NCBI GenBank assembly: GCA_045638265.1
Contig: JAZUBA010000077.1
Span: forward strand, 4,655 to 68,654
Length of the DNA stretch: 64,000 nucleotides
DNA from: Alphaproteobacteria bacterium
GTDB taxonomy: Bacteria; Pseudomonadota; Alphaproteobacteria; CAAHEQ01; UBA3637
Reading direction: 5' to 3'
The notes beneath the pieces are model-generated. The model saw nothing but the letters and a program-made list of their open reading frames with translations, had not been told where the DNA came from and did not search any database. Below are positions 1-50,089 of the stretch, one piece after another. Numbering within the stretch: position 1 is the first letter of the stretch; each line of letters starts with the position of its first letter. A program made the position numbers and the translations under genes.

Positions 1-1185
1 AATAACTTTACCACCCATCGGTGTTTGTTGTTGAGCCATTTTGACAGCTTCTTGCATTGAGTTAGCTGAGTATGCTTGAATATCCGCTTGTTCAGCCATT
101 TGTGCAATGCGTGTACCCGTATCAGGGAGCGTAATAAACAAAATCCTGTTTTTTAGCGTTCTTGCATAGTCAATTAGAGGTTCATAAATCTGACCTCGGT
201 CATATCCTCCAACTAATAATGTTAAATATCCGCCGTTATCATAAGCTTTTAAAGCAGCAATTGCCGATTCAGGTGTTGTTGAAATACTATCATCAATAAA
301 AGTTAAACCATTAAAAGTTCCCACATTTTGTAACCGATGCGGTAATGCATTCATCGTTTGAAATGCAGATTGTATAACTTTATCTGTTATCGTTTGATTG
401 AATAATTTTAACACCGTTAAAACAGCACAGGCATTTAAAGCATTGTGTTCACCTTTTAAGTTTAAAAAATCTATGGCAAATAAAGCGGTATCATTATCAA
501 AAAACAGTCCTTTTTCTAAATGAATTGTATTGAATGTGTTGAATTGATGCAGATTTTGAACGTTTATTAATTCAGATAATATTGTTTCGTTTGAACCGTT
601 AATAACGGCTTGTTCAGATAATTGAATCAATTTACATTTATCTTGATAATAATTATGATGTGATAAATGCCATTGTAAATGTTCGGGATACAAATTCAGC
701 AAAACGGCAATATCACATCCTTTTGTTAAACCGGCACATTGATAACTGGATAATTCCGCAACAACAATATCCGGTTCATCAAACAGCATTTCAATTAACG
801 GAATACCGATATTACCCGCCAGTTTTACTGTGAACCCACATTGGACAAGTGTGTGATAAAGTAAAGAAGATGTTGTGCTTTTTCCTTTTGTTCCCGTAAC
901 ACCAATGACTTTTGTCTGTTCAGATTTATTATGCAAAAATAAATCTGTTCCCGTTGTAAAGATAATACCTTGTTTTTGAGCTTGTTGTATTTCGGGACGG
1001 TATAAACTGACACCAGGGGAGGTTATGACAATATCACAGTTATTTAACACCGTTAAATTGTTATCATCAAACGACAAAACCGTTGCGGAGGGAACAAAAC
1101 GGTTAACAGCTTGCACAACTGCCAGTCCTTCACGACCCATCCCCCAAATACCAACGGTTTTATTTTGTAAGTCTAGCCATTTCAT
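1..1185 (-). CDS. murD: UDP-N-acetylmuramoylalanine--D-glutamate ligase MurD; the C-terminal end runs off the window start
   Basis: Manual reverse-strand translation from the ATG (complement of 1183-1185): MKWLDLQNKTVGIWGMGREGLAVV...; Mur-ligase P-loop GVTGTKGKSTTSSL; C-terminal IDDSISTTPES motif; AAGGA RBS upstream. Not in the ORF track because it is open to the window edge. Confidence 0.8.
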   Translation of the reverse strand, partial: MKWLDLQNKTVGIWGMGREGLAVVQAVNRFVPSATVLSFDDNNLTVLNNCDIVITSPGVSLYRPEIQQAQKQGIIFTTGTDLFLHNKSEQTKVIGVTGTKGKSTTSSLLYHTLVQCGFTVKLAGNIGIPLIEMLFDEPDIVVAELSSYQCAGLTKGCDIAVLLNLYPEHLQWHLSHHNYYQDKCKLIQLSEQAVINGSNETILSELINVQNLHQFNTFNTIHLEKGLFFDNDTALFAIDFLNLKGEHNALNACAVLTVLKLFNQTITDKVIQSAFQTMNALPHRLQNVGTFNGLTFIDDSISTTPESAIAALKAYDNGGYLTLLVGGYDRGQIYEPLIDYARTLKNRILFITLPDTGTRIAQMAEQADIQAYSANSMQEAVKMAQQQTPMGGKVI

Positions 1186-1202
1186 TAGTTAAATATCCTT
1201 AT

Positions 1203-2585
1203 TTATGAGCGAAATTTTTGTATGACTTCGGGTTCAATTTCCGATGGAATCAAATGTTCTTCCGACGGAGTAAATAAATTCGGCAAGTCATTAAAATTCT
1301 GTACCTGACACACAGAATCAATTAACGCCTGAATAACGGTGTCATTTTGCCATTGCGGTTGTTCACTTAACATCATAAAAGCACAACGGCTTTCTTCAAT
1401 TTCACCAACACACTCAAATGGTTTATGACCGCTTAATCCTAATAATTCTTTAAAGCCTTCCGTTTGTGTGTCATCATTTAATGGATTGGTTCCAACGTAA
1501 CGCACTAAAATCTCTTTATCAACAAAAGGAGCTAATATTAAAAAAACAAAGCGACACTTATCACAATTACCGCACCAACGTTCAAGGCGTTTTGTTTCGT
1601 CTAATTTAAACGCTTTATTGCAACTGGTAAAGACTGGAAAATAGGCTTGACATTCACAGGCAAATAAACGGGCAATAGCTATTTCGGATAATGGTCGTAA
1701 TAGTGAAAAATATCTGAAATCAGGCGTAATGGCTCGTGTTATCTCATAAAAATTTTGTTCAAATTCAAATGATTTACTGTATTGATGGTTTACCATCAAA
1801 TCACCCTGCATTAGATTGCCGTTATTGGCAGAGCGTTCACACGAGAGAGCAACATATTGATAATTGTACAAAACGGCAGAAGCCCATAACACAAAAGCTA
1901 ACATCCCCGTAATCGGAACATGACCGTTTTTAACAGTGCCGGATTGATTTAATTCAATCAGATGCGGAGATATTTTTCTTGTCAAAGCAATTGAATCTAA
2001 ACCGGAAACGTGTATACACTCTTGAATGGGACGGGGTAATCCAACAGAAATTGCCTGACAATCTAAACCAATTTTTTTCAATATTTCCAACGTCAGACAC
2101 GAATCTTTTCCACCGCCGACAGGAACAAGATAACGATTTTTTAAATCAGTGTTATGTTTTTTTGTTGTGCTTGCACCGTAAGGGAATGATATTTTTCCTT
2201 GTAAATTCATATTGTTACGGACGGCAAACTCGCCTAAACCATTTACATAGAACCGATTAAAAAAATCTGCCTGTGTTTTTGAAAGAACTCCGCTTTCAAT
2301 GATAATTGTTTCGGGACAAAACGTTTTGTAATAACTGATACCGAAGGCAATATGGGTTAAAAAGAAAATATCATTTAAAATGAACCGTTGTGATTCGGTT
2401 AAAGAAAATGGGATTTGGGGAAAATAAAGATGTTCTTCAAACGTATGCAGAACGGTGTTTCCCTCTGAAACGGCATAATTTAAGACCAAATCACCCGTTT
2501 GTTCGTTAAAATCATAACTTTTGTAATAAAAAACCTTGCACAAAATATTTTTTCCTTTTAAAATAACGTTTATCTTGTTATACAT
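1203..2585 (-). CDS. PP-loop (SGGxDS) ATP-pyrophosphatase-fold protein of unknown function; candidate MurL-like ATP-dependent epimerase
   Basis: Track ORF 1203..2624. The track start is GTG; the first ATG (MYNKINVIL) is at 2585. Motif LVPVGGGKDSCLTLEIL (PP-loop) and a CGNCDKC cysteine cluster. The gene is co-directional with murD and ends 17 nt upstream of it. Confidence 0.55.
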   Translation of the reverse strand: MYNKINVILKGKNILCKVFYYKSYDFNEQTGDLVLNYAVSEGNTVLHTFEEHLYFPQIPFSLTESQRFILNDIFFLTHIAFGISYYKTFCPETIIIESGVLSKTQADFFNRFYVNGLGEFAVRNNMNLQGKISFPYGASTTKKHNTDLKNRYLVPVGGGKDSCLTLEILKKIGLDCQAISVGLPRPIQECIHVSGLDSIALTRKISPHLIELNQSGTVKNGHVPITGMLAFVLWASAVLYNYQYVALSCERSANNGNLMQGDLMVNHQYSKSFEFEQNFYEITRAITPDFRYFSLLRPLSEIAIARLFACECQAYFPVFTSCNKAFKLDETKRLERWCGNCDKCRFVFLILAPFVDKEILVRYVGTNPLNDDTQTEGFKELLGLSGHKPFECVGEIEESRCAFMMLSEQPQWQNDTVIQALIDSVCQVQNFNDLPNLFTPSEEHLIPSEIEPEVIQKFRS

Positions 2586-2617
2586 CAAATTCAAAAAAAA
2601 GCAAAGGGAATTTACAG

Positions 2618-3295
2618 ATGACACAAAGAAAAAAAAGAACGGCAGGTTCCCGTTTAATCTTTTTATTGATTGTTTTATCCGTTTTTGGCATTTGCCATGT
2701 GATTTTAAGAGATTTTAATATGACTCCGGCAGAGTTGTTTGAAACGGCACAAACGGCACAAAAAAACGGGTCATATCGCAAAGCGGAACGTTATTATCTA
2801 CGGGCAACAACGGCAGGGAATCCGAATGTAGCCTTAACAGCTTCATATTATTTGGGAAATCTTTATCGTACAGGAGGCGATGGATTTCCGATTAATGGGC
2901 AAAAAGCCGAAATGTTTTTAGAACAGGCAGCCTTAAAAAATATGCCACAGGCACAATACGATTTAGCTCTCATGTATGATACAGGGGATAAAATTAAAGC
3001 CAATCGTGAAAAAGCCATTAAATTAATGCAATCAGCTGTTGACAATAATTATCCGGATGCCTTTTATAGTATGGCGGTCTGGATTGAACGGGGTTATTTA
3101 GGAAAACCCGATATGCAACAAGCAATCGCTCTTTATGAAAAAGCCGCTATTCAAGGAAATGTTTATGCCATGACAAGTTTAATAACTTTATATGGTGGTT
3201 CGGCAGAAGGTGTTGAACCTAATCCCGAACGGGCTTCATTTTGGAAAACGGCATTGACAGAAATTAATAATGCATTGAAACCAAAAAAGAAATAA
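2618..3295 (+). CDS. Sel1-like repeat (SLR) protein with an N-terminal membrane anchor
   Basis: Several ~36-aa Sel1 repeats with A..G..A.Y.LG..Y.G periodicity (ASYYLGNLYRTG, AQYDLALMYDTG, AFYSMAVWIERG). Hydrophobic N-terminus LIFLLIVLSVFGI. Confidence 0.7.
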   Translation: MTQRKKRTAGSRLIFLLIVLSVFGICHVILRDFNMTPAELFETAQTAQKNGSYRKAERYYLRATTAGNPNVALTASYYLGNLYRTGGDGFPINGQKAEMFLEQAALKNMPQAQYDLALMYDTGDKIKANREKAIKLMQSAVDNNYPDAFYSMAVWIERGYLGKPDMQQAIALYEKAAIQGNVYAMTSLITLYGGSAEGVEPNPERASFWKTALTEINNALKPKKK

Positions 3296-3329
3296 TAATT
3301 ACAATATAACAAAAAAGGAAGGGGAAACT

Positions 3330-5840
3330 ATGGAATTAAAATATCGTAAAGACTATGTTGCACCACATTATCAATTACCGTTAACGGAACTTGATTTTAC
3401 ATTGCATCCGACTCAAACCATTGTTAAGGCTAAATTACATTTTAAAGATGTGGATACATCTAAACCGTTGGTTTTAAACGGACAATATATGACTTTAAAC
3501 AAAATTGCCATTGACGGTGTTGCTGTTGATAAGTCTGATTACGCTTTATCGGATAAAGACTTAATTTTAAATCCGCAAACAGCTGATTTTGTTTTGGAAA
3601 CGGAAGTTGAAATCAATCCGCAGGAAAATACACGTTTAATGGGTTTATATGTATCAAATGGTATATTCTGTACCCAATGTGAACCGGAAGGTTTTCGCAA
3701 TATCACTTACTATCCCGATCATTCGGATGTGCCGAGTAAATATATCGTAACCATCCATGCAGACCGAAAAAAATATCCTGTCTTATTGTCCAACGGAAAC
3801 GTAATTAAAGACGAAGGAGATACAATCGTTTTTGAAGACCCTTACAATAAGCCTTGTTATTTATTTGCTCTTGTTGCCGGTGATTTAGACAGTATTGAAG
3901 ATACATATACCACAGGTTCAGGTAAAAACGTTGATTTACGGTTATATTGCGAACGAGGTAAAGCCGACAGATTGACATTTGCCATGAGTGCTTTAAAACG
4001 CTCTATGGCCTGGGATGAAAAAGTATTTAATTTAGAGTATGATTTAAACCGTTTCAGTATTGTTGCCGTTTCTCATTTCAATGCCGGTGCGATGGAAAAC
4101 AAATCATTAAATATTTTCAATGATGCGGCCTTGCTTGCCTCTCCTGATACAGCAACGGATGCCAGTTATGAATATATTGAACATGTGATTGCACACGAAT
4201 ATTTCCATAATTACAGCGGAGACCGAGTAACAGTACGCAGTTGGTTTGAACTCTCTTTAAAAGAAGGTTTTACGGTCTTCCGTGATTCTGAATACGGTTA
4301 TGATACATTCTCACGTGCCGTCAGTCGTATTGATGACGTTGCTCAATTACGAGCTTATCAATTCCCCGAAGATGACGGACCGTTGGCACATCCTGTCAGA
4401 CCGGATTCTTATCATGAAATTGAAAACTTTTATACAACAACCATTTATGAAAAAGGTGCCGAAGTTATCCGTATGCAAAAAGCCTTACTGGGTGAGGAAA
4501 AATTTATGCGGGGCTGTGCTTTATATTTTAAACGTCATGACGGACAAGCCGTTACCATTGATGATTTTGTCAAAGCAATGGAAGATGTTTCCCGTAGTTC
4601 TTTAATTCAATTTAAGCATTGGTATTCTATTGCCGGTCGCCCGAAAGTTAAAGTTGTTACAAAATACGAAGACGGTATTTATACTATTCGTTTAACACAA
4701 AAACACCCGAAAACACGTCGTCCGTTTGTTATTCCGATGCATTACGGTTTAGTCGGTAAAAAGGGTGAAGATTTAAAATCAGGGACACTTGTTTTATCTC
4801 AAAAATCACAAACATTTTCTTTTAATGTCCCTTATGAACCGGCTTTATCTCTTAATCGTTTCTTTACATCACCGATTGATTTAGAAATTCATCATAAAAA
4901 AGCCATGCGGTTGCATTTGATGACTTATGATTCTGATTTGTTCAACAGATATGATGTCGGTCATCAATATGCATTAGACAGTATGGTCAATATGTATGAA
5001 AAAGGCACAACGGAAGCTGATATGGAAGTTATTCATGCTCTGGGCGCTTATTTATCACAAAAGAACTTGGATAAAGCCTTTTTGGCACGAGCCATTGTCT
5101 TGCCGACAGAAGAAGAGATTTTTGAACGAGTAGAGGTTGCCGATGTCAAGCGAATTAAACAAATTCGTAATGCGATGCGTTTAGCTTTTGCCAAATTATA
5201 TGAAGATAAGTTGTTAAAATTATATCAGGATAATCAAATCAAAGGACCTTATGTGCCGGATAATGAATCATTTGCTAAACGGGCAATTAAAAATGTTGCT
5301 TTGGGATATCTGGCTTTGCTTGGATATTCAGATTTGGTTAAAAAACAATATGATGAAGCAAATAATTTAACTGATAGATTAAGTGCTTTAAACATCTTGG
5401 TTAACAATGATTTGGCTGGTGTGGATGACGCATTGGCTGATTTCTATCAACGTTATGAAAATGACGATTTGGTCTTAAATAAATGGTTTGCCGTACAAGC
5501 TCGCAACAGTGCCAAAAATACGTTGCCGATTGTGCGTGAATTATTACAACATCCGAAATTTGATCTGAAAAATCCGAATAAAGTACGGGGTGTATTAGGT
5601 GCTTTCAGTGGCAATTTAGAATATTTCCATTGTGAAGAAGGTTATCGTTTCTTTGCGGAACAAACAATGGCTGTTGACAAAATCAATCCGAATTTGGCAG
5701 CTCGTTTATTTACGGCATTTTCAAAATATCGTAAATTAGATGAAGCAACCAAATCATCTGCTCAAGCGGTGTTAAAAGAATTGGCATCGGATAAAAATTT
5801 ATCCTCGATTTCCCGTGAAACGATTGAACGGATGATTTAA
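3330..5840 (+). CDS. pepN: Aminopeptidase N (M1 family zinc metallopeptidase)
   Basis: 836 aa. GAMEN motif (NAGAMENKSLN) and HEXXH-X18-E zinc site (VIAHEYFHNYSGD...LKEGFTVF). GGAAGGGG RBS. Confidence 0.92.
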   Translation: MELKYRKDYVAPHYQLPLTELDFTLHPTQTIVKAKLHFKDVDTSKPLVLNGQYMTLNKIAIDGVAVDKSDYALSDKDLILNPQTADFVLETEVEINPQENTRLMGLYVSNGIFCTQCEPEGFRNITYYPDHSDVPSKYIVTIHADRKKYPVLLSNGNVIKDEGDTIVFEDPYNKPCYLFALVAGDLDSIEDTYTTGSGKNVDLRLYCERGKADRLTFAMSALKRSMAWDEKVFNLEYDLNRFSIVAVSHFNAGAMENKSLNIFNDAALLASPDTATDASYEYIEHVIAHEYFHNYSGDRVTVRSWFELSLKEGFTVFRDSEYGYDTFSRAVSRIDDVAQLRAYQFPEDDGPLAHPVRPDSYHEIENFYTTTIYEKGAEVIRMQKALLGEEKFMRGCALYFKRHDGQAVTIDDFVKAMEDVSRSSLIQFKHWYSIAGRPKVKVVTKYEDGIYTIRLTQKHPKTRRPFVIPMHYGLVGKKGEDLKSGTLVLSQKSQTFSFNVPYEPALSLNRFFTSPIDLEIHHKKAMRLHLMTYDSDLFNRYDVGHQYALDSMVNMYEKGTTEADMEVIHALGAYLSQKNLDKAFLARAIVLPTEEEIFERVEVADVKRIKQIRNAMRLAFAKLYEDKLLKLYQDNQIKGPYVPDNESFAKRAIKNVALGYLALLGYSDLVKKQYDEANNLTDRLSALNILVNNDLAGVDDALADFYQRYENDDLVLNKWFAVQARNSAKNTLPIVRELLQHPKFDLKNPNKVRGVLGAFSGNLEYFHCEEGYRFFAEQTMAVDKINPNLAARLFTAFSKYRKLDEATKSSAQAVLKELASDKNLSSISRETIERMI

Positions 5841-5964: not shown

Positions 5965-7083
5965 ATGTTAAATCAGTTTAAAACCGCTTTAAATAACAAA
6001 TTAAAAGAAAGTGAACATATTTATACGATGTCTCGGATAGCCTTTATGACGTTTCTATCCGAAACGACCACACACTATTGTCGTCAAAAAATATATAATC
6101 CTGATGATAAGAACAAAATTATGGCATATGTTCGGCAAATTTTAAAACAATATTCTGTTCATGTAGAAAGAAAACCGATTGATGTGATACATCAATTAGA
6201 CAAAGAAACATCTTATTACCAAAATCATCATGCTTTGTTGAAAGCCATTCAAAATAAAGATGAGAATTATATTACAGAACTGTTGAAAAACAATAAAAAC
6301 AATCAAATTCATCATGCCTTACAATGTGCCGTTTATACTGAAAATCTAAAAGCTGTGTCATTGATTTTTGAATATGGATTAACAACTGAAAAACAAAAAG
6401 CCAAATTTGCTAAACGATGTTTAAGACATGTTGTTCGTGTTGGTAGTAAAAAGATGTTAAAAATATTTTTAAGGTACTTGCCCCTTCTTGCTGATGATAA
6501 TGGTACAACACGTCCTTTGGTGTTTGAATTAACACAAAATAGTGGAAGAAGCACACTTATTGAACTGCTTGTTAACCACGGGATGAATGTTCATGCACGT
6601 AACAAACAAGGTGATACGGTTTTACATGCAGCAGCAAAATCAGATTATGCCTCTGATTTATATTATGTTATATCAGACTTGGTATACAGATACAAAGTCA
6701 ATATCAATGCAACCAACAATAACAAAGAAACACCGATATATTGTGCGGCCAATGTATGTGAGGATAATTCGGATGTGATTACTTCCTTATTTTTAGCCGG
6801 TGCCGAAATAAATCCAACCACGACGTGTCCACCGTTGTTTGGCGCTATTAGAGCAGGATCGCTTGATAATATAAATATTTTGTTGAAGTATACAGCCAAT
6901 CCAAAAGCCAGTTATAAAGGAGAAACCACATTGGATTGTTTTAATCAATTACATGAAGATACTTTTTCACCGTATGTACGAGCACAAATAATTAAGCTAT
7001 TTACACCTGAACCGGCTAAACCGACATTAATTCAACGGGCGAAAGGTATATGTCAATCTATTCAGAAAATTTTTACCCGATAA
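5965..7083 (+). CDS. Ankyrin-repeat protein
   Basis: Repeated G(D/E)T(V/P)LH..A / N..N..G.TP(I/L) ankyrin signatures (QGDTVLHAAAK, KETPIYCAA). Confidence 0.6.
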   Translation: MLNQFKTALNNKLKESEHIYTMSRIAFMTFLSETTTHYCRQKIYNPDDKNKIMAYVRQILKQYSVHVERKPIDVIHQLDKETSYYQNHHALLKAIQNKDENYITELLKNNKNNQIHHALQCAVYTENLKAVSLIFEYGLTTEKQKAKFAKRCLRHVVRVGSKKMLKIFLRYLPLLADDNGTTRPLVFELTQNSGRSTLIELLVNHGMNVHARNKQGDTVLHAAAKSDYASDLYYVISDLVYRYKVNINATNNNKETPIYCAANVCEDNSDVITSLFLAGAEINPTTTCPPLFGAIRAGSLDNINILLKYTANPKASYKGETTLDCFNQLHEDTFSPYVRAQIIKLFTPEPAKPTLIQRAKGICQSIQKIFTR

Positions 7084-7093
7084 AAGAATAAAA

Positions 7094-7127
7094 AAAGAAA
7101 GAAACCTGACAGATTTCTTTCTTTTAT
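7094..7127. terminator. Bidirectional hairpin terminator between convergent genes
   Basis: AGAAAGAAA-cctgacaga-TTTCTTTCT flanked by A-run and T-run tracts. Confidence 0.55.
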
Positions 7128-7144: not shown

Positions 7145-9478
7145 TTATTTCGGATAACATCGGCCATTTCTGTATTCACGGTTCATACATTTTTGGCAAT
7201 ATTCTTCCGTTGTTTCAACTGAAATGGCAGTATTACAAGGATAACAATTATTATCTTTACCTAAAATTTTGTTGTTATCAGAACAATATTCACGAACGCA
7301 GTAACCATCATTTCCGGTTGTTTTATTCATTTTGCGATTAGGGCAAATTTCATTGCATAAGTGATAATCTCTTGGTTCATATATCCAAACATTAGCCGTT
7401 TCATCACAATCATGACAAACACCCCATACATCAGGTAGAGGTTTTCCTTTTGTGCCGTTTTCTTCACTGTTGCACGTTGGATAACATACACTATGTCCAG
7501 TCATGGAACGATTTGGGCAAGAAGCACAATTTGTTTCAGTTGCAAGATTGTTTGAATCATGATGTTTTGGAGGATATGTGCAAGACATACACGAACCATT
7601 TTTATTCATAAATTTACCACTGGAACAACTATTTAAAATACATTTGTCGCCTGATTTTTTTCTGATGTTAGGACATAAATTTTCACATGTATCTGTCAGT
7701 GCAACATTATAAATAATCCCGTCATAATCACAAGGGTAACATTTGCCGTCCGTTGCTAACAATGGTTTTTCAGGGTCGGTACATGGTTTGCGACAATAAC
7801 CGTCTCCTCCAGATCTGTCCATCACTCTATCAGGACAAATTTCTTTACACAAATGGTAATCTCTCGTATCATATATCCAAATTCCAGCGTCTTCATCACA
7901 ATCATGACAAATACCCCATACATCCGCCAACTTTTTACCTTTTGTGCCGTTTTCTTCATTATCACACGTTGGATAACATACACTATAACTATTCATAGAA
8001 CGATTTGAACAAGAGGAACAATTTGTTGCAGTAGTAAGATTGTTTGAATCTTGATTTTTAGGAGGATATGTACAAGAAATACATTTACCGGAATTATTCA
8101 TAAATTTACCGCTTGGACATGCGTTTAAAAGACATTTATCTCCCGATGTTTTTCTGATGTTAGGACATAAATTTTCACATGTATCTGTGAGTGCAACATT
8201 ATAGATGATTCCATCATAATCACACGGATAACATTTACCGTCTGTTGCTAACAAAGGTTTTGCCGGATCAGTACATGGTTTGCGACAATATCCGTCTCCT
8301 CCCGGTCTATCCATAACACGATTAGGACAAATTTCTTTACATTTGTAATAATCTTTTGTCTCATACATCCAAATACCAGCATTCTCTTCGCATGAATAAC
8401 ATATGCCAAAAACATTTGCTAAAGGCTTACCTTTTGTTCCATTTTCTTCACTATCGCAAGTCGGATAACAAGCACCCCAATTATTACGGGTACGGTTTGG
8501 ACAAGAGGCACAATGTGTTGCTGTTGCCTTGTGATTTTCTGTGTTTGCTGTCGCTGGATATGTACAAGAACGGCAAATACCATGTATTGATGTAAACGTA
8601 CCTGTTCCGCATTCTAAATGGCAATATGATCCTTCTAAAATTCTATTTTCACATAAATCTGTGCATAATTTTGTGTTTGCCATAAGAAAACTGGATGTTT
8701 CATCGCAACTATGACAACCACCGTATTTGTCTACAATCGGTTTGTCTTCAGGACAACAGGTGCCGTTTTTATCACAACACTTACCTTCAGGTGATACAAA
8801 TGAACAACAGTATTGACCCGCAACATAATCTGTCGGACAACAAACTCTGTTACGTGGATTATTATAATCAATGGAGCATTTTTCTCCCACGGCACAATAT
8901 GTTTCACAAATTCCTGTTTCGGTATTACACGTTCCGCAGTAACAATCGTTGGTATGATTACACCGTTGTAATTCGTGACGGTCTTCTTCCGCCAAATCTG
9001 TTTCGCCCAACAAATCTTCATGAAATTCATAAGCAATCGTAACTGTTTCAGTATCATCACAAATAGAAACATCTCCCTCATATCGTTTAATATTAACAAA
9101 TGTTGAAAACGGCAAAGTCCAATTTGACTGTAAAATTTGTTTACAAACATCAGAGGGTACATCAGATACAAACATTTCAAAGAAATCAACATATTGCGGA
9201 TGTGTACGTGCTGTTATGGGATAACCCGAACGTGTTACATTGCCCATTTCCATATCTATTATGCCGACAAAATTACTTTCAATGATTTGATCCATTCGTT
9301 GTGAGATATCATGAGCCCGAATATTAAGTTCATTTATTGTTTCATTAGCATTGTATTTATTAAAAGCATAACGATAACCTTGAATTGCACCGATAGATAA
9401 CACACCAACAACAGCCAAAACACCCAGCATTTCAACCATTGATCTTCCCAATTCGTTGATTTTAAAAGCTTTTCTCAT
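7145..9478 (-). CDS. Giant cysteine-rich secreted or surface protein with a type IV pilin-like (class III) N-terminal leader and three internal tandem repeats
   Basis: N-terminus MRKAFKINELG|RSMVEMLGVLAVVGVLSIGAIQGY has the G(-1)/E(+5) prepilin-like pattern followed by a hydrophobic helix. About 100 Cys residues in CxxC/CC/CxC clusters and many NxS/T sites. Three ~195-aa repeats (YP..N..ATNC.SC.NR...CYPTC..EENGTKGK.L...). Confidence 0.6.
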   Translation of the reverse strand: MRKAFKINELGRSMVEMLGVLAVVGVLSIGAIQGYRYAFNKYNANETINELNIRAHDISQRMDQIIESNFVGIIDMEMGNVTRSGYPITARTHPQYVDFFEMFVSDVPSDVCKQILQSNWTLPFSTFVNIKRYEGDVSICDDTETVTIAYEFHEDLLGETDLAEEDRHELQRCNHTNDCYCGTCNTETGICETYCAVGEKCSIDYNNPRNRVCCPTDYVAGQYCCSFVSPEGKCCDKNGTCCPEDKPIVDKYGGCHSCDETSSFLMANTKLCTDLCENRILEGSYCHLECGTGTFTSIHGICRSCTYPATANTENHKATATHCASCPNRTRNNWGACYPTCDSEENGTKGKPLANVFGICYSCEENAGIWMYETKDYYKCKEICPNRVMDRPGGDGYCRKPCTDPAKPLLATDGKCYPCDYDGIIYNVALTDTCENLCPNIRKTSGDKCLLNACPSGKFMNNSGKCISCTYPPKNQDSNNLTTATNCSSCSNRSMNSYSVCYPTCDNEENGTKGKKLADVWGICHDCDEDAGIWIYDTRDYHLCKEICPDRVMDRSGGDGYCRKPCTDPEKPLLATDGKCYPCDYDGIIYNVALTDTCENLCPNIRKKSGDKCILNSCSSGKFMNKNGSCMSCTYPPKHHDSNNLATETNCASCPNRSMTGHSVCYPTCNSEENGTKGKPLPDVWGVCHDCDETANVWIYEPRDYHLCNEICPNRKMNKTTGNDGYCVREYCSDNNKILGKDNNCYPCNTAISVETTEEYCQKCMNREYRNGRCYPK
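7150..8600 (-). repeat. Three intragenic tandem repeats of ~585 bp (high DNA identity) inside the Cys-rich gene
   Basis: Near-identical DNA blocks, e.g. ~7670-7830 vs ~8150-8310 (tttctgatgttaggacataaattttcacatgtatctgt...ggtttgcgacaata...ccgtctcctcc). Confidence 0.7.
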
Positions 9479-34433: not shown

Positions 34434-34508
34434 GTATAAATATTGACAAATTATTCTTTTTAATGTATCTTATAACAATATATGAAATTCAAGCAAAAGG
34501 AAAACGAA

Positions 34509-35174
34509 ATGAATCAAACTGACAAAGTTATTGATATGCAAAATGAATTTGGAGAAACACGATTAATGAAAAGTGTTTTATCCGGTTGTATAGCCGGTGT
34601 TAAAATAGCTCTTGCACAAGGGGCATCTTTAAATATTCAGGATAAAATGGGACATACGGCTTTAGCACTCGCTTGTATTTATAATCATCCTGAGATTGAA
34701 AAATTGCTTATTCAGGCCGGCGCTGATGTTAACATTTCAGATATATCTCATACAACACCGCTTATTCACGCTTGTTATAATGGAAATACGGCACAAATTA
34801 AACGATTGATAAAAGCCGGCGCTGATGTTAACGCTAGTGATTATGATGATATGAGTCCGTTAACATATGCTGTTAAATCAAACGTTTTAAGTGCGGTGGA
34901 AGCTGTATTGGAAGCACAACCGAATGTAAATATACAAGATATGCACAAACGGACACCACTTATCTGGGCATCAACTCCTGATCGGATTGATATGTTTGAA
35001 GTTTTATTGAAAGCAGGGGCTTCAACGGAAATTTGTGATAAGAATGGGAAAACGGTACTTGATTATGCTATTAAAATGCAAAATCCGAAAGCTGTGAAAT
35101 TAATACAACAATATCAGCCCAAAATGCGGAAAATGGTTAATCAATATCTCAATCATGAAAAGCAAAACGGATAA
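34509..35174 (+). CDS. Ankyrin-repeat protein
   Basis: GETRLMKSV, GHTALALAC, HTTPLIHACYNG and SPLTYAVKS repeats. The track start is 34482, but AAAAGGAAA then ATG at 34509 is the better start. A TTGACA promoter box lies at 34443. Confidence 0.75.
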   Translation: MNQTDKVIDMQNEFGETRLMKSVLSGCIAGVKIALAQGASLNIQDKMGHTALALACIYNHPEIEKLLIQAGADVNISDISHTTPLIHACYNGNTAQIKRLIKAGADVNASDYDDMSPLTYAVKSNVLSAVEAVLEAQPNVNIQDMHKRTPLIWASTPDRIDMFEVLLKAGASTEICDKNGKTVLDYAIKMQNPKAVKLIQQYQPKMRKMVNQYLNHEKQNG

Positions 35175-35192: not shown

Positions 35193-35942
35193 ATGACAAA
35201 TTTAAATTATCGTGAACAGGAAAAAATATGGTTTCAATATATTGAAAAAAACGATATTGAAATGATAAAATCTTGTATTAAAGAAAATTTTGATATTAAT
35301 TTACAAAACAAAGATGGTGAAACAGCGTTGATGAAATTTGCACAACAAGGAAATAATGAAGTTGTTGAATTGTTAATCAACGCAGGGGCAAATTTAAATA
35401 TAACTGATGAATATGGTGATACGGCTTTAATTAAAGCGATTGAACATTTTCATTTAAACACATTAAAATTGTTAGTTGAACGTGGTGCAGATATTCATCA
35501 GGAAAATGAATCTCATGATTCGCCGTTGATGGTTGCCTGTGAAATCGGAAATGTAGAAGCCGGACGATATTTGCTAAATCAAGGAGCTAATCATCGGCAT
35601 ACAAATACTTGTGATGAAACAGCCGTTATTAAAGCAGCCCAACATGGGTCGTTGCCTAACTTAATGGATTTAATTTCTGTTGGCGCCGATATTAATGCAC
35701 AAGATACACGTGGTAAAACAGCATTAATGCATGCCATTGAACAAGGACATAATAAAGTTGTTGATGTTTTATTGTTACACAAAGCAAACACAGCCATTAA
35801 AAACAATCAATGCAAAACGGCCCGACAAATTGCCTATCAGTGTAAAAATAAAACAGCATTGTATTTATTTTCTATACATGAACCCGGTTTGAAAGATGTA
35901 TTTAAAATGTTGCTCTTTGGGTTTCAAAGGCAACGTGATTAA
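35193..35942 (+). CDS. Ankyrin-repeat protein
   Basis: GETALMKFAQQG, GDTALIKAIEH, DSPLMVACEIG and KTALMHAIEQG repeats. Confidence 0.8.
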   Translation: MTNLNYREQEKIWFQYIEKNDIEMIKSCIKENFDINLQNKDGETALMKFAQQGNNEVVELLINAGANLNITDEYGDTALIKAIEHFHLNTLKLLVERGADIHQENESHDSPLMVACEIGNVEAGRYLLNQGANHRHTNTCDETAVIKAAQHGSLPNLMDLISVGADINAQDTRGKTALMHAIEQGHNKVVDVLLLHKANTAIKNNQCKTARQIAYQCKNKTALYLFSIHEPGLKDVFKMLLFGFQRQRD

Positions 35943-37295: not shown

Positions 37296-38267
37296 ATGAG
37301 AGAATTGTCAGTAGATGAGTTGTGTCAAAATGTACATCGTCCGATTAAAGGGACTTTTCGCATATATAAAACTAAACCTAAAACCTCTGTTGAACAATCT
37401 GTTACGGAAATGATTGAAGAAGCAAAACAACAAAAGTGTATGATTGTTTCAGAATTTAAAGGTATTCCCATTATGGTTGATGAGCAATCAACCGTTTCTG
37501 GTATTGTGAAATCTTATGAATGTGAATCTAAAGCACGTTTGGCTGAAAATAAAGAAATGCGAAAGTTTGTGATTAATTTAAAACAAACATATTTGATGAA
37601 TTTGTCAATGGGAACAGATATTTATACTGCTACAGATAATATGATTAAGGTTGCTCAAGCTTTAAATGGGATTGTATTTGCAAAATTCAATACCGTTCCC
37701 TTTGCCGTTAATCAACATTCAACTCTTGACGGGGTTATTAACGGTTTTCAAACAGAAGTGAGTGAACGAAGTGAAGCATATAAAAATTCACCAGAGGGTC
37801 AAAAACGGGCATTAGAAGAAAAACGGCGAGAAATTGAAGATTATAAATTAGGGATTCAGGTTGATGAACTTATTAAAAATGAAGAATTGTCCATCACATC
37901 TCCAATTCATTTTAATAAATTAAAAACAAATGCTGAAAAAGAGGGGTTATCAGCCATTGTTGATGTTGCCAATCGTTGGGGTCGTTTAATGCAGATTGAA
38001 ATGAAAAATCAAAATACAAACAAATTAACGCAGAAAATGGTTGCTTCAACTTATAAAATGGCAACAGCCGGAAAGTCGGATTATAATCTGTCCGGTTCTC
38101 TGTATGGCTTTGTACGTAATATGTTGATTGTTTGTTGGGATAAGGGTCGTGATTTAGCACAAATTGAACGATTTAATATGACAGAAGTTGATACGGTTCG
38201 TCATGAAGTTCAATCAGCTGAGAAGAATATTAAAACGCCAATTAAAACAAATAATTATACACGATAA
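37296..38267 (+). CDS. Hypothetical protein
   Basis: 323-aa ORF with a strong promoter, RBS and terminator; no recognisable motif. Confidence 0.5.
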   Translation: MRELSVDELCQNVHRPIKGTFRIYKTKPKTSVEQSVTEMIEEAKQQKCMIVSEFKGIPIMVDEQSTVSGIVKSYECESKARLAENKEMRKFVINLKQTYLMNLSMGTDIYTATDNMIKVAQALNGIVFAKFNTVPFAVNQHSTLDGVINGFQTEVSERSEAYKNSPEGQKRALEEKRREIEDYKLGIQVDELIKNEELSITSPIHFNKLKTNAEKEGLSAIVDVANRWGRLMQIEMKNQNTNKLTQKMVASTYKMATAGKSDYNLSGSLYGFVRNMLIVCWDKGRDLAQIERFNMTEVDTVRHEVQSAEKNIKTPIKTNNYTR

Positions 38268-39711: not shown

Positions 39712-42700
39712 ATGTTAAACATCAATAAAAAACAAAAATCAGAAACCAAACTCAAATTAGAAAAAAAGAGAAAAAAGTTAGGGAAACCAATACGTTTAAC
39801 ACATACTTTTGCAAAAGCAAAAAATAGTGCAGTTTTCAGAACTGCACGAAAATCATTGAAAGCAGTTCCTTATATGGGAACAGGCTTAGTATTTGGTGAT
39901 AGCGAATTAATACGATTAATTACAAAATTTGATTTAGCTAAAATAGCAACAAACAACATTGATGGCCTTTTGCATATAAAAGATGCTGCATCGTATATCA
40001 TAAATAATCCAAAAGAAGTTACCAATGAATTATTCGGAGAAGGATTAATTGCTGGCATTCGTGAAACAGCGGTAACCTTACATGATAACATTTCATTAAC
40101 AGGCCATGTCATTGATCCTTCACATAAAGCAAAAGCTTGGATTGCAGACAGTCTTGGTGCGCACAAAGTGTCCTACATAGATGAAAATGGAGAATCAAAA
40201 TTATCCATCGAGAAACAAGAGTATATCTACTCATATGTGCCTTATGGTCCCGACTCGGAAGCACGAGCCAGACTTTTTGTTTATCGACCAGCAGAAGGCT
40301 TAACAGATCAAACAGATGCTAATGGTGAAAAAATAAGAGAATTTTTAAGGGTTCCTGTTGCAGAATTTGACATTCAAAATGACCGCGTAACATATGAAGT
40401 TGAATACAATTCAGATGGGACAAAAACTATTCATTCATATAATGATGAAAATCCGCAATATCAACACTTACAAGAAAATTTTCTAAAAAATAAAATCATC
40501 AATACAAATGAAATTTTTGCTCGTTTCGGAATGCCTGAAACAAAAGTCGGCAACTATTTTGGACAAAAAACAGCAACAGATGTTTTAAAATCAATTAAAA
40601 TAGGTAAACGGATTAGTTCACAAACATACGGCAAAGGAGAAACATATACCGTAATTGATTGGGATAATAGTCAAGATGATAAACTTGTATTTGCAGAAAT
40701 ATACGAACAAATGAATACAAAAACATCTGCTAGATCTCAGTCAGCAGGTATCGTTATGAAAAATATAACAAAAGGAACTGAATATAATAGTGTTTCATAT
40801 GAAGATTTAAAAGAACTAGGTATCAATATCAATGGCGACAAAAATGATTTAAATGTAAGAACACGCATTTTAAAAGATATTTCAAAGAAACTTCATTATA
40901 TCAGAGCAACACAATCTTTTCAAATCATTCAACCTTACCAAGAAACAACTCAAACAAATTTTCAATATTACCGACAAACTGTTAATTATATAAAGAATAC
41001 TGAGGATGAACGTTCAGATTTTTTTAGCAAACATCCATTGTTTGGTCAACGCGACAACACATATATTTCTGAAATAATTGATTATAATATAAATGAAAAA
41101 TCTTTTTTTGACAAAGATGGAAATATAATTTTAAGTGTAACATTTGATAATCCTTCTCAATATAATCATTATCAATATATACCCAACAACATTTTCATTC
41201 CAACAAATACGGATGGGATTAATATGCAATTTGCTCCAACGGGAGAATTTTTAGGCTTTCAATCGGACGAACACACTGCCAATTTAGAAAAATTAAAGCG
41301 ATTACTTGCAGAAAAAGAATTATTACAAAATTTTGATTACTTAAAAAAAACTCTTGGTGTTAAAACATTACCTGAAATACGTAACAAACTAAATCAATTA
41401 TCTAAAACAGAAGATGTTTCTGCATGGGTTGAAATAGTTAATAGTATAGAACACTATGATTTAAAAAATTTTGATGCTCAAGTAATTGATGTGGAATTAG
41501 AAAAATTTACTGCAAAAAATGAACAATTTGAAAAACAGTTTACTGAACTTAAAAAGAAACATATTCAGCGGAATAAAGATGGAAATATTCGTATTTCAAC
41601 AAAATATCATCCGCTTATAATTGGTAAGGAAATTGTTGTAACAAATGAAAACAATAAAAAAGAAAAAATCATAAAAATCAATCAGCTTACGGGATATCCA
41701 CTTACCTTTGAAACATCAGAATATAAATCTCATCGTGATTTTCCGATAGAAGAAACCGATACACAAGAATTTTATTCTTACATGGGCAGAGAAGGGAATT
41801 TTGACTATTATAGAATTAATTACAATGGAACACCAAATACACAAAATTACGGTGGATATGTAAAAGAAGATGCTGTAACGGGAATTTGTCATACATTTAA
41901 TCGCCATGGAAATTGTATTTATATTGATGTCCCTAATGGAGATATAAACACAGATGAAAATTGGGCTTACAATTCAAACTCTGATAGGTATAAACGCATA
42001 TATGAAATGATTATCGAATCAGACAAAGGAGGTGTTTTTTCCAATAATGATGTTCTTGAAATGGCAAAAAAACATAAAGAAACTAACATTCCATTTGATT
42101 ACTTCTCCAAATTAGCAAAATACGAACATATGTTAAAGGAACCTCTGAGAATATCTGGTATAAAAAATCAATATATTCGCTTAAATACATATACGGCTGA
42201 ATTAATCAAAAAAGAGCTTATAACAGATACATATATTGATAACCAACTGAAATGCTTATCTGAATTGGAAACCATATTAAACGGGATTCCAAAACAAACA
42301 GCAGCAATTAAAACTCAAAAAGAAGCATTAAAAAAACAACGCAATATTTTAAAAGAAATGTATCAAAAACCAATAGATGAAAAGACACAAGATATCATCA
42401 AACAAGTTTTACTTTTTGATAATCAGGCAAAGCATTGTCTTTATATACCTTCACACGCTACCCAAATTGATACCAATCAATATATATCAAAAAATGATAA
42501 TTATACAAAAAACTCAGTTATAACAAAATGTTACAATCAAAAAAATCCAGCACAAACTGTATATCGCATTAATTCAAACAAGGGGGAATTTGCTGGATTA
42601 ATTATTGAAGATAAAAAAACAACAATTTGTCAAATATATGATAACAATGGATATTTAATTGAAGTAGACAAACCATTAGACACTTCTTCCGATGAAACAA

Positions 42701-43047
42701 ACTGGTATTCTTTGAATGATTTAAATAATCCTCGCTTATGTGATATGATAGACATTGTTGCAAAAAGAATGTCGTTATATCAATATGCATATGGTATAAA
42801 TAAAAATTGTCCAACATATGAAAATCGTTTAACAAAACAAATACGTTTTGATAAATTTAAGGAAAGGAAGAAACTTGAAATGACAATAGCAGAAACAGAT
42901 TTTTCTCCATTTTTTGATGATTCATATTCATATACGGATAATCTTATCAATGAGACATTGGTCAAAAATGCACAAAAATTTGACACAGATTCTAGGGATA
43001 TTAAAAATAAAAATTCATCTATTTCAAATAAAAATCAATCCAGATAA
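39712..43047 (+). CDS. Very large (1111 aa) orphan hypothetical protein with basic N- and C-termini (candidate secreted effector)
   Basis: Single long ORF, Asn/Lys/Tyr-rich, no recognisable catalytic motif; N-terminus KKQKSETKLKLEKKRKKLGK. Confidence 0.5.
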   Translation: MLNINKKQKSETKLKLEKKRKKLGKPIRLTHTFAKAKNSAVFRTARKSLKAVPYMGTGLVFGDSELIRLITKFDLAKIATNNIDGLLHIKDAASYIINNPKEVTNELFGEGLIAGIRETAVTLHDNISLTGHVIDPSHKAKAWIADSLGAHKVSYIDENGESKLSIEKQEYIYSYVPYGPDSEARARLFVYRPAEGLTDQTDANGEKIREFLRVPVAEFDIQNDRVTYEVEYNSDGTKTIHSYNDENPQYQHLQENFLKNKIINTNEIFARFGMPETKVGNYFGQKTATDVLKSIKIGKRISSQTYGKGETYTVIDWDNSQDDKLVFAEIYEQMNTKTSARSQSAGIVMKNITKGTEYNSVSYEDLKELGININGDKNDLNVRTRILKDISKKLHYIRATQSFQIIQPYQETTQTNFQYYRQTVNYIKNTEDERSDFFSKHPLFGQRDNTYISEIIDYNINEKSFFDKDGNIILSVTFDNPSQYNHYQYIPNNIFIPTNTDGINMQFAPTGEFLGFQSDEHTANLEKLKRLLAEKELLQNFDYLKKTLGVKTLPEIRNKLNQLSKTEDVSAWVEIVNSIEHYDLKNFDAQVIDVELEKFTAKNEQFEKQFTELKKKHIQRNKDGNIRISTKYHPLIIGKEIVVTNENNKKEKIIKINQLTGYPLTFETSEYKSHRDFPIEETDTQEFYSYMGREGNFDYYRINYNGTPNTQNYGGYVKEDAVTGICHTFNRHGNCIYIDVPNGDINTDENWAYNSNSDRYKRIYEMIIESDKGGVFSNNDVLEMAKKHKETNIPFDYFSKLAKYEHMLKEPLRISGIKNQYIRLNTYTAELIKKELITDTYIDNQLKCLSELETILNGIPKQTAAIKTQKEALKKQRNILKEMYQKPIDEKTQDIIKQVLLFDNQAKHCLYIPSHATQIDTNQYISKNDNYTKNSVITKCYNQKNPAQTVYRINSNKGEFAGLIIEDKKTTICQIYDNNGYLIEVDKPLDTSSDETNWYSLNDLNNPRLCDMIDIVAKRMSLYQYAYGINKNCPTYENRLTKQIRFDKFKERKKLEMTIAETDFSPFFDDSYSYTDNLINETLVKNAQKFDTDSRDIKNKNSSISNKNQSR

Positions 43048-43134: not shown

Positions 43135-44007
43135 TTACTCTCTACAACCTCGTTCTTGGTGTGCTGCCAAAGATTTTTGTTGTGTTGTTACTTTTGATAT
43201 ACCTGTTTTTATTGTATCCATTTTTTGAATTAAATGTTTTAATTCAATAAATTGGATTGAACTCTTAATCATTGTGCTATCTTTAATAGCTTTATAAGCA
43301 TAATCACGAGCCGTTTCCCCAAATTCATTTTGAAGCGTTATATCTGCCCCGTTATTGATTAATGCTTCAGCAATATTATAACGCGCATTTTGAATGGCTA
43401 TCATTAATGCCGTTTCACCCCATCTGTTTTGTTTGTTTAAATTGGCATTTAATTGAATAATTTGTTCTACATCACTTGTTTTACCTGTATGAGCCAACAA
43501 CATTAAAGCAGTATTACCGTCTTTATTTTTTGCATTTATATCAGCACCGGCTTTGATTAACGATTCTGTCAAATATGTTTTCCCCGATGTAACAGCATAC
43601 ATCAAAGCAGTAAACCCATTTTTTTCTTTATCATTAACATTTGCCCCATTCTGAATTAATGTTTCTGCAATGTTTTTGTGACCTCTGCTTGCCGCCCACA
43701 TTAAAGGTGTTATACCATTCACATCTTTAACGTTTATATCTGCTTTGGCATGAATTAAAGCCTCTACAATTTGAGTTAAACCATGGTAAGCAGCCTCCAT
43801 TAAAGGTGTATTCCCAAGCATATCTTTTGTATGAATATCTTTGCCTTCATTGATTAATGCAATTGCTTTTTCTTCATGACCTTGTTGAATTGCCTCCATT
43901 AATAAAGATTTTTTTTCTGCTTGTGGGTAATATACGGCACAATCCATATTCAGGATAGGTTTAATGTCTATCATTTTTTTTCTCCATAAGTTGAAATTAC
44001 TATTCAA
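43135..44007 (-). CDS. Ankyrin-repeat protein
   Basis: Six or more canonical repeats (GNTPLMEAAYHG, GITPLMWAASRGH, GFTALMYAVTSG, GNTALMLLAHTG, GETALMIAIQNA). Confidence 0.85.
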   Translation of the reverse strand: MNSNFNLWRKKMIDIKPILNMDCAVYYPQAEKKSLLMEAIQQGHEEKAIALINEGKDIHTKDMLGNTPLMEAAYHGLTQIVEALIHAKADINVKDVNGITPLMWAASRGHKNIAETLIQNGANVNDKEKNGFTALMYAVTSGKTYLTESLIKAGADINAKNKDGNTALMLLAHTGKTSDVEQIIQLNANLNKQNRWGETALMIAIQNARYNIAEALINNGADITLQNEFGETARDYAYKAIKDSTMIKSSIQFIELKHLIQKMDTIKTGISKVTTQQKSLAAHQERGCRE

Positions 44008-48923: not shown

Positions 48924-49379
48924 ATGAAAAACGAATCCCAAGTCTTTTTTGAAAATATTTTAAACCAATTAAAAGATATTCAAATCAAACATACGGCAAT
49001 TTTAAACGAAATAAACGCCGTACAACAACAATCACGTATTTTGGCTGAACTGGTAGCCTGTTTTTTAAATAACCCGCTGTACGTTAAAAAAAACGCCCTT
49101 ATTGTGCGTTCTATTAACTCATATCTGAAAACTGGTTTAAATTTAGACCAAGCCATGATTAAAACGTCCGAAAGATTGTGCGAATCGTTCAGACGTTGCC
49201 AAGTTGTTTATAACGTGGAAAAAAATCATGAAAATGTAATGAAACAGTATGCAATCCGGCACATGGTTTTGACGCTTGCAAAAAATGGATTTTCCAAGCG
49301 CCAAATTGCCAAAATATGCGGTTTTTCCGAAAAATATCTATACGATTTTATCAAGAAAAACAAGGAGAAACAACGTTAA
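48924..49379 (+). CDS. Hypothetical protein with a C-terminal HTH-like segment (phage regulator?)
   Basis: FSKRQIAKICGFSEKYLYDFIKK; 151 aa; GGAG RBS; first gene inside the dif-bounded element. Confidence 0.4.
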   Translation: MKNESQVFFENILNQLKDIQIKHTAILNEINAVQQQSRILAELVACFLNNPLYVKKNALIVRSINSYLKTGLNLDQAMIKTSERLCESFRRCQVVYNVEKNHENVMKQYAIRHMVLTLAKNGFSKRQIAKICGFSEKYLYDFIKKNKEKQR

Positions 49380-49522
49380 TTGAACCAACCAATAAACGTT
49401 GAAATGAAACTCATTAAATCACCCGTACCGGTTAAATATGAACCGATAGATGTAAAAATATATCCCCAAAACGATTTATTTTTGATTGTAGCCTTGATTT
49501 TATCTTTCATGCCCTACCCCCC

Positions 49523-49717
49523 TTAAAAAAATGTCATTTGTTGCTGTGAGCGTCTTTTTGTGCGTTTTTTGACCGTCTTTTTTTTCGGTTTAGCTGTCTT
49601 TTTTGTTTTTGACTTCATTTTGTTGTATATTTTCTTGCGTTCTTCTGCCGGCAATCCTTGCGTCATGCAAGCCCAATACGCCTTTTGGTATTTTCTATAT
49701 AATGCTGTTGTTGTCAT
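49523..49717 (-). CDS. Small highly basic protein (KKTAKPKKKTVKKRTKRR tail), possible DNA-binding/packaging protein
   Basis: 64-aa ORF at the end of the phage late block. Confidence 0.3.
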   Translation of the reverse strand: MTTTALYRKYQKAYWACMTQGLPAEERKKIYNKMKSKTKKTAKPKKKTVKKRTKRRSQQQMTFF

Positions 49718-50078: not shown

Positions 50079-50089
50079 AAAAAGACCTC

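Follow-up and report, generated by a model that had tools for sequence, protein, structure and literature searches.

The stretch analysed here, hereafter the window, comprises 64,000 nucleotides (64 kb) of contig JAZUBA010000077.1 from a genome labelled Alphaproteobacteria bacterium, and its element of interest is an open reading frame (ORF) on the minus strand at positions 7145..9478. The ORF is real and gives a complete coding sequence of 777 amino acids plus stop codon, which from the reading frame, its composition and its homologues we interpret as a modular type IVb-like pilin; the coordinates of all parts of this gene refer to the minus strand. The protein divides into an N-terminal leader and pilin module, a linker and neck (residues 166-254), and ten cysteine modules (residues 255-777). 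Residues 1-11 (9446..9478) make up the leader peptide MRKAFKINELG, for which the sequence and the family logo predict prepilin-peptidase cleavage after Gly11. The N-terminal stretch, MRKAFKINELG↓RSMVEMLGVLAVVGVLS (the arrow marks the predicted cleavage site; the same stretch is also written as MRKAFKINELG↓RSMVEMLGVLAVVGVLSIGAI and MRKAFKINELG↓RSMVEMLGVLAVVGVLSIGAIQGYRYAFNKYNANE), has Gly, Arg and Glu at -1, +1 and +5, respectively, and continues as a hydrophobic helix, exactly as had been described in an earlier note on this DNA. It thus combines a short hydrophilic leader ending in glycine with about 20 hydrophobic residues and a glutamate at +5, MRKAFKINELG↓RSMVE(+5)MLGVLAVVGVLSIGAI, which is the pattern expected of a type IV pilin. 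In characterised systems, Gly-1 and Glu+5 are important when prepilins are processed and assembled.

The leader is followed by the pilin module, residues 12-165 (8984..9445), in which a long α1 helix bearing Arg+1 and Glu+5 leads into a β-sheet head; this assignment draws on an AlphaFold2 model, on Foldseek and on profile searches. Residues 1-165, modelled by AlphaFold2 from an 82-sequence alignment, reached a predicted local distance difference test (pLDDT) value of 91.1 and a predicted template-modelling (pTM) score of 0.79, with a helix spanning residues 10-67 and then four strands in the head, so that the predicted structure has the pilin fold, an extended N-terminal α-helix on an antiparallel β-sheet head. 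The only two cysteines of this domain, Cys112 and Cys140, lie in the head. When the model was compared with the PDB by Foldseek, the top 14 matches were all type IVb pilins (PilS, TcpA, CofA), with probabilities of 0.54-1.00 and query-normalised TM-scores of 0.31-0.55; they include PilS 3fhu from S. Typhi (E 5.8e-4), TcpA 8uhf, CofA 9iuf, 3s0t and 3vor, and TcpA 3hrv. A type IVb head-domain fold is therefore indicated for the predicted structure, and a profile of the N-domain run against PDB sequences likewise ranked TcpA best (E 0.0016) and other pilins next. We also take the α1 helix, G↓MTLLEVIIVLGIMGVVSAG here and G↓RSMVEMLGVLAVVGVLSIG in TcpA, to resemble those of TcpA and CofA. Type IVb pilins, to which TcpA, CofA, BfpA and PilS belong, have leaders of about 13-30 residues, a residue other than Phe at +1 and a mature length of about 180-200 amino acids. 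Here the residue at +1 is Arg and thus non-Phe; unlike type IVb pilins, the leader has 11 residues and the mature module about 150 amino acids rather than about 190.

The N-domain of the 777-residue protein has no match to Pfam PilS (PF08805) or Bundlin (PF05307) at E≤1. Short relatives of 150-200 amino acids (P0175, P0204 and others) match this N-domain at E of about 1e-12, and such relatives, P0175 among them, pass both PilS (56 bits, threshold 22) and Bundlin (33.5 bits, threshold 22.3); homology of the N-domain to PilS and Bundlin is therefore transitive, yet consistent. In another locus (L006, 5585-11361), two adjoining short pilins of 215 and 201 amino acids both pass the two models, and the same cluster contains three unannotated genes (302, 352 and 453 amino acids, the last with tetratricopeptide repeats) and a further gene of 203 amino acids without assignment. 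These short pilins are candidates for the shaft, or major, pilins, in what may be an accessory cluster.

The full protein has 336 homologues, all of them unnamed or annotated as "hypothetical protein", and those with a named source come from metagenome-assembled genomes (MAGs) labelled Alphaproteobacteria bacterium. The N-domain alone retrieved 1,478 proteins, and a scan of species-representative genomes yielded at least 591 stretches, almost all in gut MAGs of ruminants, rabbits and humans. The motif G↓RSMVEMLGVLA is present in 239 of the 259 relatives that were fetched, and in alignment A1 the residues G, R, M, E, L and G of the leader region are invariant. The family logo, (N or E)-E-x-G↓R-S-M-V-E-M-L-G-V-L-A, is nearly invariant, Arg+1 included, across more than 1,400 unannotated proteins of gut Alphaproteobacteria MAGs, with variants such as G↓RSMLE, G↓RSFTE, G↓KSMME and G↓RTVLE in distant members. 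A literature search for the leader string found it in no paper, and a paper on the reduced-genome gut Rs-D84 bacteria does not describe these pilins. Isolated members also occur under unrelated taxon labels, in a MAG labelled Acidaminococcaceae (L054, on a 3.3-kb contig) and as an ATPase labelled Lactobacillales (P0477), which probably reflects binning contamination rather than horizontal transfer. These findings support reading the N-terminus as a true class III (prepilin) signal rather than as a signal anchor of the general kind.

The machinery that such a signal implies was found in related MAGs. Three loci (L090, 3299-15086; L093, 3422-13162; L073, 419-10198) contain the same chromosomal operon, in the order of a first gene without Pfam match, a TcpQ-like gene, Secretin, PAP_PilO, a second gene without Pfam match, T2SSE and T2SSF, and set among the housekeeping genes SecA, TIM and SecG. 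This order is that of the R64 thin-pilus (pilL-pilS) cluster, and by their position the two genes without Pfam match (about 372-405 and 313-337 amino acids) may be the equivalents of PilL/PilM and PilP. In many related MAGs the pilus ATPase is conserved, with identities of 59-93%. In L073 and L090 the gene right after T2SSF begins ...G↓RSMVEMLG, and in L090 it encodes a modular pilin of 398 amino acids with a lectin-like end; the L093 operon has no adjoining pilin gene. A further locus, L071, encodes a 234-residue Peptidase_A24 with LPD and GAGDVK motifs, located about 14 kb from a block that is syntenic with positions 586-3442 of the window. From the three operons and this peptidase it follows that the lineage has the machinery implied by the leader. 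The three pilus loci further hold a two-component system and a divergent TrbC-like gene.

Downstream of the pilin module the protein changes character. An acidic linker and an 89-residue cysteine-rich neck with CC pairs, recognised from the sequence (residues 166-254, 8717..8983), precede super-repeat 1 (residues 255-415, 8234..8716, modules M1-M3 with six cysteines each), super-repeat 2 (residues 416-579, 7742..8233, modules M4-M6), super-repeat 3 (residues 580-744, 7247..7741, modules M7-M9) and a truncated terminal module M10 with five cysteines (residues 745-777, 7148..7246), which gives nine full modules and a tenth incomplete one. Each 164-residue unit is built from three six-cysteine modules of 47-58 amino acids, named types A, B and C, that share the pattern C-x2-C ... 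C-x2/3-C-(P)NR ... C-x3/4-C. The earlier note had announced about 100 cysteines in some 740 residues; the region is indeed very rich in cysteine, but the protein contains 76, 74 of them past residue 170, where they make up 12% of 607 residues. CxxC pairs number 15, against 8.9 ± 2.7 in shuffled sequences, and CC pairs number four. The many NxS/T sites that had been noted amount to 16 in the whole protein, of which 13 fall in residues 171-777, where shuffles give 7.5 ± 2.5, a mild excess in a sequence rich in Asn, Thr and Ser.

The three-fold repetition that had been reported was recovered by Tandem Repeats Finder and by an offset scan, but with a period of 492 bp (164 amino acids) instead of about 585 bp (195 amino acids), and the copies are far from almost identical in DNA. 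Tandem Repeats Finder gave 79-82% identity across 2.1-2.4 copies, and codon-aligned DNA identity is 76.5% between super-repeats 2 and 3, 66.9% between 1 and 2, and 60.4% between 1 and 3, with protein identities of 73%, 60% and 50%, respectively. Between copies, the synonymous divergence (dS) of 1.0-1.5 is close to saturation and the ratio of nonsynonymous to synonymous divergence (dN/dS) is 0.17-0.29; as judged from these sequences, the repeats are old and under purifying selection. The proposed recent expansion of the repeats was consequently rejected, given this dS and the three-unit architecture that is kept in homologues of only 45% identity.

The repeat appears to be an undescribed fold, confidently modelled and with no counterpart in the PDB or Pfam. 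AlphaFold2 modelled residues 416-579, from an alignment of 50 sliced repeat units, with pLDDT 94.3 and pTM 0.83, and this three-module unit found no fold match in the PDB by Foldseek (best E 0.74). Pfam and NCBIfam searches with the full 777-residue protein returned at E≤1 only Pfam DUF7805 at 16.6 bits and no NCBIfam family, no Pfam family recurred over the 50 repeat units, and a repeat profile run against PDB sequences gave only spurious cysteine-rich matches, the best being a ferredoxin-like subunit (E 0.025). Among 1.84 billion representative proteins, the repeat profile found only 613 clusters. Within the best 150 of the 613 representatives, 58 have the pilin leader and 57, by a heuristic count, an ordinary Sec-like or lipoprotein-like N-terminus. 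The six-cysteine module without a pilin module stands behind Sec-type or lipoprotein-type signals in P0260, P0275, P0280-P0282, P0291, P0309 (2262 amino acids) and others, including giants with 17 matched stretches, so it exists independently outside pilins; by sequence it is best described as an extracytoplasmic building block that is confined to this lineage and has become attached to a pilin carrier.

These searches bear on two other views of the cysteine-rich region. That it might be a eukaryote-mimicking protein of the EGF, furin or TNFR type, acquired from a host, was suggested in the earlier note, and the high cysteine content, the CxxC spacing and a genome rich in ankyrin and Sel1 repeat genes would be in keeping with it, as would sub-threshold Teneurin-EGF matches in a few paralogues (P0116, 33.9 bits, threshold 65) and isolated, insignificant Furin-like and TNFR_c6 matches (one in 50 members each, E 0.11-0.23). 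Against this, the Pfam and PDB searches, by fold and by sequence, gave no significant match to such modules, with DUF7805 the sole Pfam family at E≤1 and none recurring over the repeat units; the module is confined to the 613 clusters, those inspected bear signals of a bacterial kind (pilin or Sec), and the two module-bearing proteins with a source name among those inspected are both from Alphaproteobacteria MAGs. We regard such mimicry as very improbable. Still slightly less credible to us is that the cysteine clusters bind metal, in zinc-ribbon-like or Fe-S fashion, which would make the rod a metal-binding or redox structure. The CxxC ... CxxxC spacing does resemble zinc knuckles, single members give scattered weak matches to zinc-ribbon and Fer4 models, and the best PDB sequence match is the ferredoxin-like subunit already mentioned; all of these matches, however, are insignificant and non-recurrent, the pilin or Sec signals export the protein to an oxidising compartment, and the six strictly conserved cysteines per module (17 invariant cysteine columns in alignment A3 of the 50 repeat units) form the pattern of three-disulfide modules.

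We compared the gene with its alleles in other strains. The 90%-identity cluster contains three other full-length alleles from other assemblies, all of 775-777 amino acids, with three super-repeats and exactly 76 cysteines each. Since these three further assemblies keep three units, the repeat number is stable and no artefact of assembly, and the collapse to one copy that had been named as a possible outcome did not occur; the notion of an assembly artefact was discarded. In the pilin module, the neck and the terminal module the alleles share 91-100% identity, with the neck at 97-99% (46-53% in the homologues P0002-P0004) and M10 at 97-100%, and identity falls to 52-69% in single modules, mainly the B-type M2, M5 and M8, where variation is concentrated in the loops between cysteines 2 and 3 and between cysteines 4 and 5. 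The alleles are mosaic, and some cassettes are nearest to a module at another repeat position: M2 of P0241 is 79% identical to M5 of P0242 but only 52% identical to M2 of P0242, and M2 of P0243 is 83% identical to M5 of the same protein. At the level of sequence, this pattern points to gene conversion or cassette exchange and fits a surface under diversifying pressure. The ongoing recombination that the earlier note had proposed thus finds backing in the mosaic alleles, not in the repeat identity that had been cited for it.

The constant N-domain is followed by different C-termini across the family, namely six-cysteine modules, EGF_TEN-like stretches and lectin-like domains. In one MAG, SIG53, which is syntenic with the window at 67-70% DNA identity, ten fetched loci contain at least 19 distinct leader-bearing, cysteine-rich genes, mostly scattered outside the pilus operon. 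Some are arranged in tandem arrays of four consecutive genes (L021, 7528-15024; L032, 3175-11863), each gene with a G↓RSM(V/I)E(M/I)LG leader and 17-70 cysteines.

Taken together, the invariant leader, the predicted type IVb fold, the relatives that pass PilS and Bundlin, and the leader-bearing genes directly after T2SSF make a pilus-displayed adhesin, as the earlier note had also supposed, the best reading of the gene. More precisely, we propose that it encodes a modular type IVb pilin carrying a cysteine-rich adhesin or recognition stalk on a type IVb pilus, one of a large repertoire, and we put the probability of this reading at roughly 60%. The N-terminal hydrophobic helix would insert the protein into the inner membrane, and on the cytoplasmic side an A24 prepilin peptidase would cut behind Gly11, so that the leader of 11 residues would be lost and Arg+1 become exposed. 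The pilin module of about 150 residues would then enter an R64/Tcp-like type IVb machine consisting of the TcpQ-like protein, the secretin, PilO, the T2SSE ATPase and the T2SSF platform. Because the C-terminal 610 residues are bulky, incorporation would most likely take place at the pilus tip, as with other modular or minor pilins, where a rod of ten six-cysteine modules, presumably disulfide-bonded, would be displayed. This rod would act as an adhesin or recognition stalk with hypervariable loops in every third module, and the many paralogues built on the same pilin module would provide a repertoire of specificities for host, mucus or partner-cell surfaces.

Several observations weigh against this proposal. 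The Pfam N_methyl model (PF07963) fails on the N-terminus (10 bits, E 0.71, threshold 21.2), as it does on relatives that score 12.6-18.1 bits, mainly because of Arg+1 and the SMVEM sequence, and the NCBIfam prepilin models give no family at E≤1 on the 777-residue protein. To our knowledge, Arg at +1 has not been described in a characterised pilin, so that cleavage of an Arg+1 leader by an A24 peptidase can only be presumed; Arg+1 poses questions about the specificity of A24 prepilin peptidases and about the packing of α1 in the filament, given the contact between Glu5 and the N-terminus. The gene is a solitary one, with housekeeping and ankyrin genes for neighbours and no pilus operon around it; neither pilus machinery nor a prepilin peptidase lies in the 64-kb window (Pfam searches of some 50 ORFs, motif and hidden Markov model (HMM) scans), and no second pilin-like gene, ATPase or type II secretion system (T2SS) component was found in it with regular expressions, HMMs from alignments A2 and A3, or Pfam. 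On the structural side, a rod of about 610 residues might or might not pass a secretin, and disulfide bonding of the modules is assumed, as CxxC pairs could also bind metal. Finally, at least 19 paralogues per genome are far above the usual number of minor pilins, and this may indicate a role in display or secretion other than incorporation at the tip.

The lack of a peptidase and machinery in the window, the failure of the standard N-methylation models and the atypical Arg+1 would all be compatible with an uncleaved Sec or signal-recognition-particle signal anchor, in which case the product would be a periplasmic protein tethered to the inner membrane and its likeness to pilins ancestral and no longer functional. 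A plain membrane anchor, however, would not need the Gly-1 and Glu+5 that are invariant, with Arg+1, across more than 1,400 proteins, nor does it agree with the type IVb fold; the type IVb operon, highly conserved, persists in the lineage together with an A24 peptidase, and lectin-like or adhesin-like C-termini of paralogues make little sense in the periplasm. We therefore consider a signal anchor, which the earlier note had held out as a possible better explanation of the leader, improbable.

The number of paralogues raises an alternative that we judge unlikely, though less so than the anchor: the class III signal could serve as a device for export or anchoring without incorporation into a pilus, through a short pseudopilus, through a surface assembly resembling the T2SS pseudopilus or the archaeal bindosome, or through release after processing. 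Bindosomes of archaea consist of sugar-binding proteins with class III signals. A pilus tip would not seem to need as many paralogues as the 19 or more of a single small MAG, most of which lie outside the pilus operon, and the L093 operon lacks an adjacent pilin gene. The same cysteine module is moreover exported behind ordinary Sec-type signals, and its function therefore has no intrinsic need of a pilus. Three findings argue in the opposite direction: the operon has a secretin and the R64/Tcp-type accessory proteins that typically go with extended type IVb pili, the family holds short PilS/Bundlin-type members able to form a filament shaft, and the entire pilin head, beyond the signal, is kept at 62-98% identity while the C-terminal modules diverge, which suggests selection for packing into a filament.

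If the gene encodes a modular pilin as we propose, it joins a known class. Modular pilins, in which a pilin module is combined with extra domains, are recognised and widespread and are presumed to be displayed at the tip (Raynaud et al. 2021, PMC8179133), so that the fusion is not unusual, contrary to what the earlier note had supposed. Like PilB and PilC of S. sanguinis, the protein joins a small pilin module with class III signal, through a linker, to a bulky non-pilin module, and like modular pilins in general the family pairs one carrier module with many effector modules, the extra module presumably being displayed at the tip for adhesion. Unlike PilB and PilC, its pilin module is type IVb-like and its host a diderm alphaproteobacterium. 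The census of modular pilins took a match to InterPro IPR012902, the entry of Pfam N_methyl PF07963, as its criterion (PMC8179133); the protein described here differs from the members of that census in its invariant Arg+1 leader, which PF07963 misses, in its effector, a ten-module cysteine-rich rod without Pfam or PDB counterpart, and in the presence of at least 19 such genes in one genome. Since G↓RSMVEML proteins fail the standard models, pilin surveys built on standard prepilin motif models would miss more than 1,400 proteins with this leader. As fusions of a pilin with another module are established, the finding is not categorically new; the protein departs from the closest known systems in its Arg+1 leader, its undescribed cysteine-rich fold, its stand-alone position and the large number of its paralogues.

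Among type IVb minor pilins, large ones that bear further domains at the C-terminus and act at the pilus tip are also known from CofB of enterotoxigenic Escherichia coli (ETEC) CFA/III and from TcpB of the toxin-coregulated pilus (TCP) found in Vibrio cholerae (PMC8179133, PMC5207764, PMC6048534). The rod described here has no sequence or fold similarity to their β-repeat and β-sandwich domains, and unlike them the gene lies outside any pilus operon and has many paralogues rather than being a single minor pilin. In the PilV adhesins of IncI (R64, TP114) thin pili, one and the same pilin N-terminus can carry different C-termini, which determine the binding specificity and are switched by a shufflon (PMC9045228, PMC5430464). 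The present family resembles PilV in its constant pilin N-terminus and alternative C-termini, and the operon of related MAGs shares the R64 pil order and an R64-type PilO; it differs in that diversity arises from separate full-length genes and mosaic alleles instead of site-specific DNA inversion, there being no shufflon recombinase next to the 777-residue gene, in that the operon is chromosomal and not on a plasmid, and in its unrelated C-terminal domains.

Among eukaryotes, the variant surface proteins (VSPs) of Giardia and the surface antigens of ciliates are protist proteins rich in cysteine, with frequent CxxC, periodic modules and strain-level hypervariability. The rod is similar in its cysteine content of about 10-12%, its frequent CxxC, its periodic modules and its hypervariability, but no sequence or profile relationship was detected and the signals are bacterial, so that we regard the resemblance as analogy, not homology.

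A broader and much more tentative idea, which we think doubtful for the present, is that these uncultured gut Alphaproteobacteria, possibly with small genomes, load one conserved chromosomal type IVb machine from some 20 or more interchangeable Arg+1 modular pilins, many of them with undescribed disulfide-rich repeats whose loops are reshuffled between positions and strains, to achieve programmable adhesion or partner recognition. Were this so, the system would be functionally akin to the PilV shufflon or to pilin antigenic variation, working through whole-gene repertoires and cassette conversion instead. A type IVb pilus that is itself conserved but draws on a large repertoire of tip modules varying between strains would be a possible route of attachment to host mucus, protists or partner bacteria, of interest to specialists in pili and to students of uncultured gut Alphaproteobacteria.

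The immediate surroundings of the gene give it the look of a single-gene unit. It is monocistronic, with an ankyrin gene on one side and a membrane-protein/DusA pair on the other. A promoter-like site (9511..9539, minus strand), given by consensus match alone, consists of TTGCAA, a 17-nt spacer and a TG-extended TACAAT, about 30 nt upstream of the start codon; promoter-like sites in the region are no more numerous than in shuffles. The ATG is preceded by a Shine-Dalgarno-like GGGGG run. About 20 nt past the stop codon, a terminator-like 15-bp hairpin followed by a T-run (7093..7125, minus strand) sits between the gene and the convergent ankyrin gene.

In the wider window, on a contig with a GC content of 34%, Pfam searches on the approximately 50 ORFs revealed housekeeping genes, six ankyrin genes (5965-7083, 13841-15472, 15491-16930, 34482-35174 and 35193-35942 on the plus strand, and 43135-44007 on the minus strand), one Sel1-repeat gene (2618-3295, plus strand) and a decayed prophage. 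The density of eukaryote-like repeat proteins, six ankyrin and one Sel1 in 64 kb, suggests a host- or protist-associated lifestyle. The prophage remnant (48924-55959) contains a weak DNA-invertase fragment (48924-49379), an endolysin (50090-50611), a tail-fibre-like or virion structural protein (50978-52039) and a fragment of the terminase large subunit (54890-55570) that covers only model positions 310-497 of 555. An ORF of 323 amino acids in a chromosomal context (37296-38267, plus strand) matches Pfam Tad4, an anti-defence-like domain (type I Thoeris inhibitor), at 28.2 bits, only slightly over the threshold of 25. Two orphan ORFs on the plus strand without Pfam match, one of 919 amino acids (24051-26810) with a long tract of low complexity, rich in Pro, Thr and Gln, and a transmembrane segment at its C-terminus, and one of 1111 amino acids (39712-43047), could encode lineage-specific surface or effector proteins.

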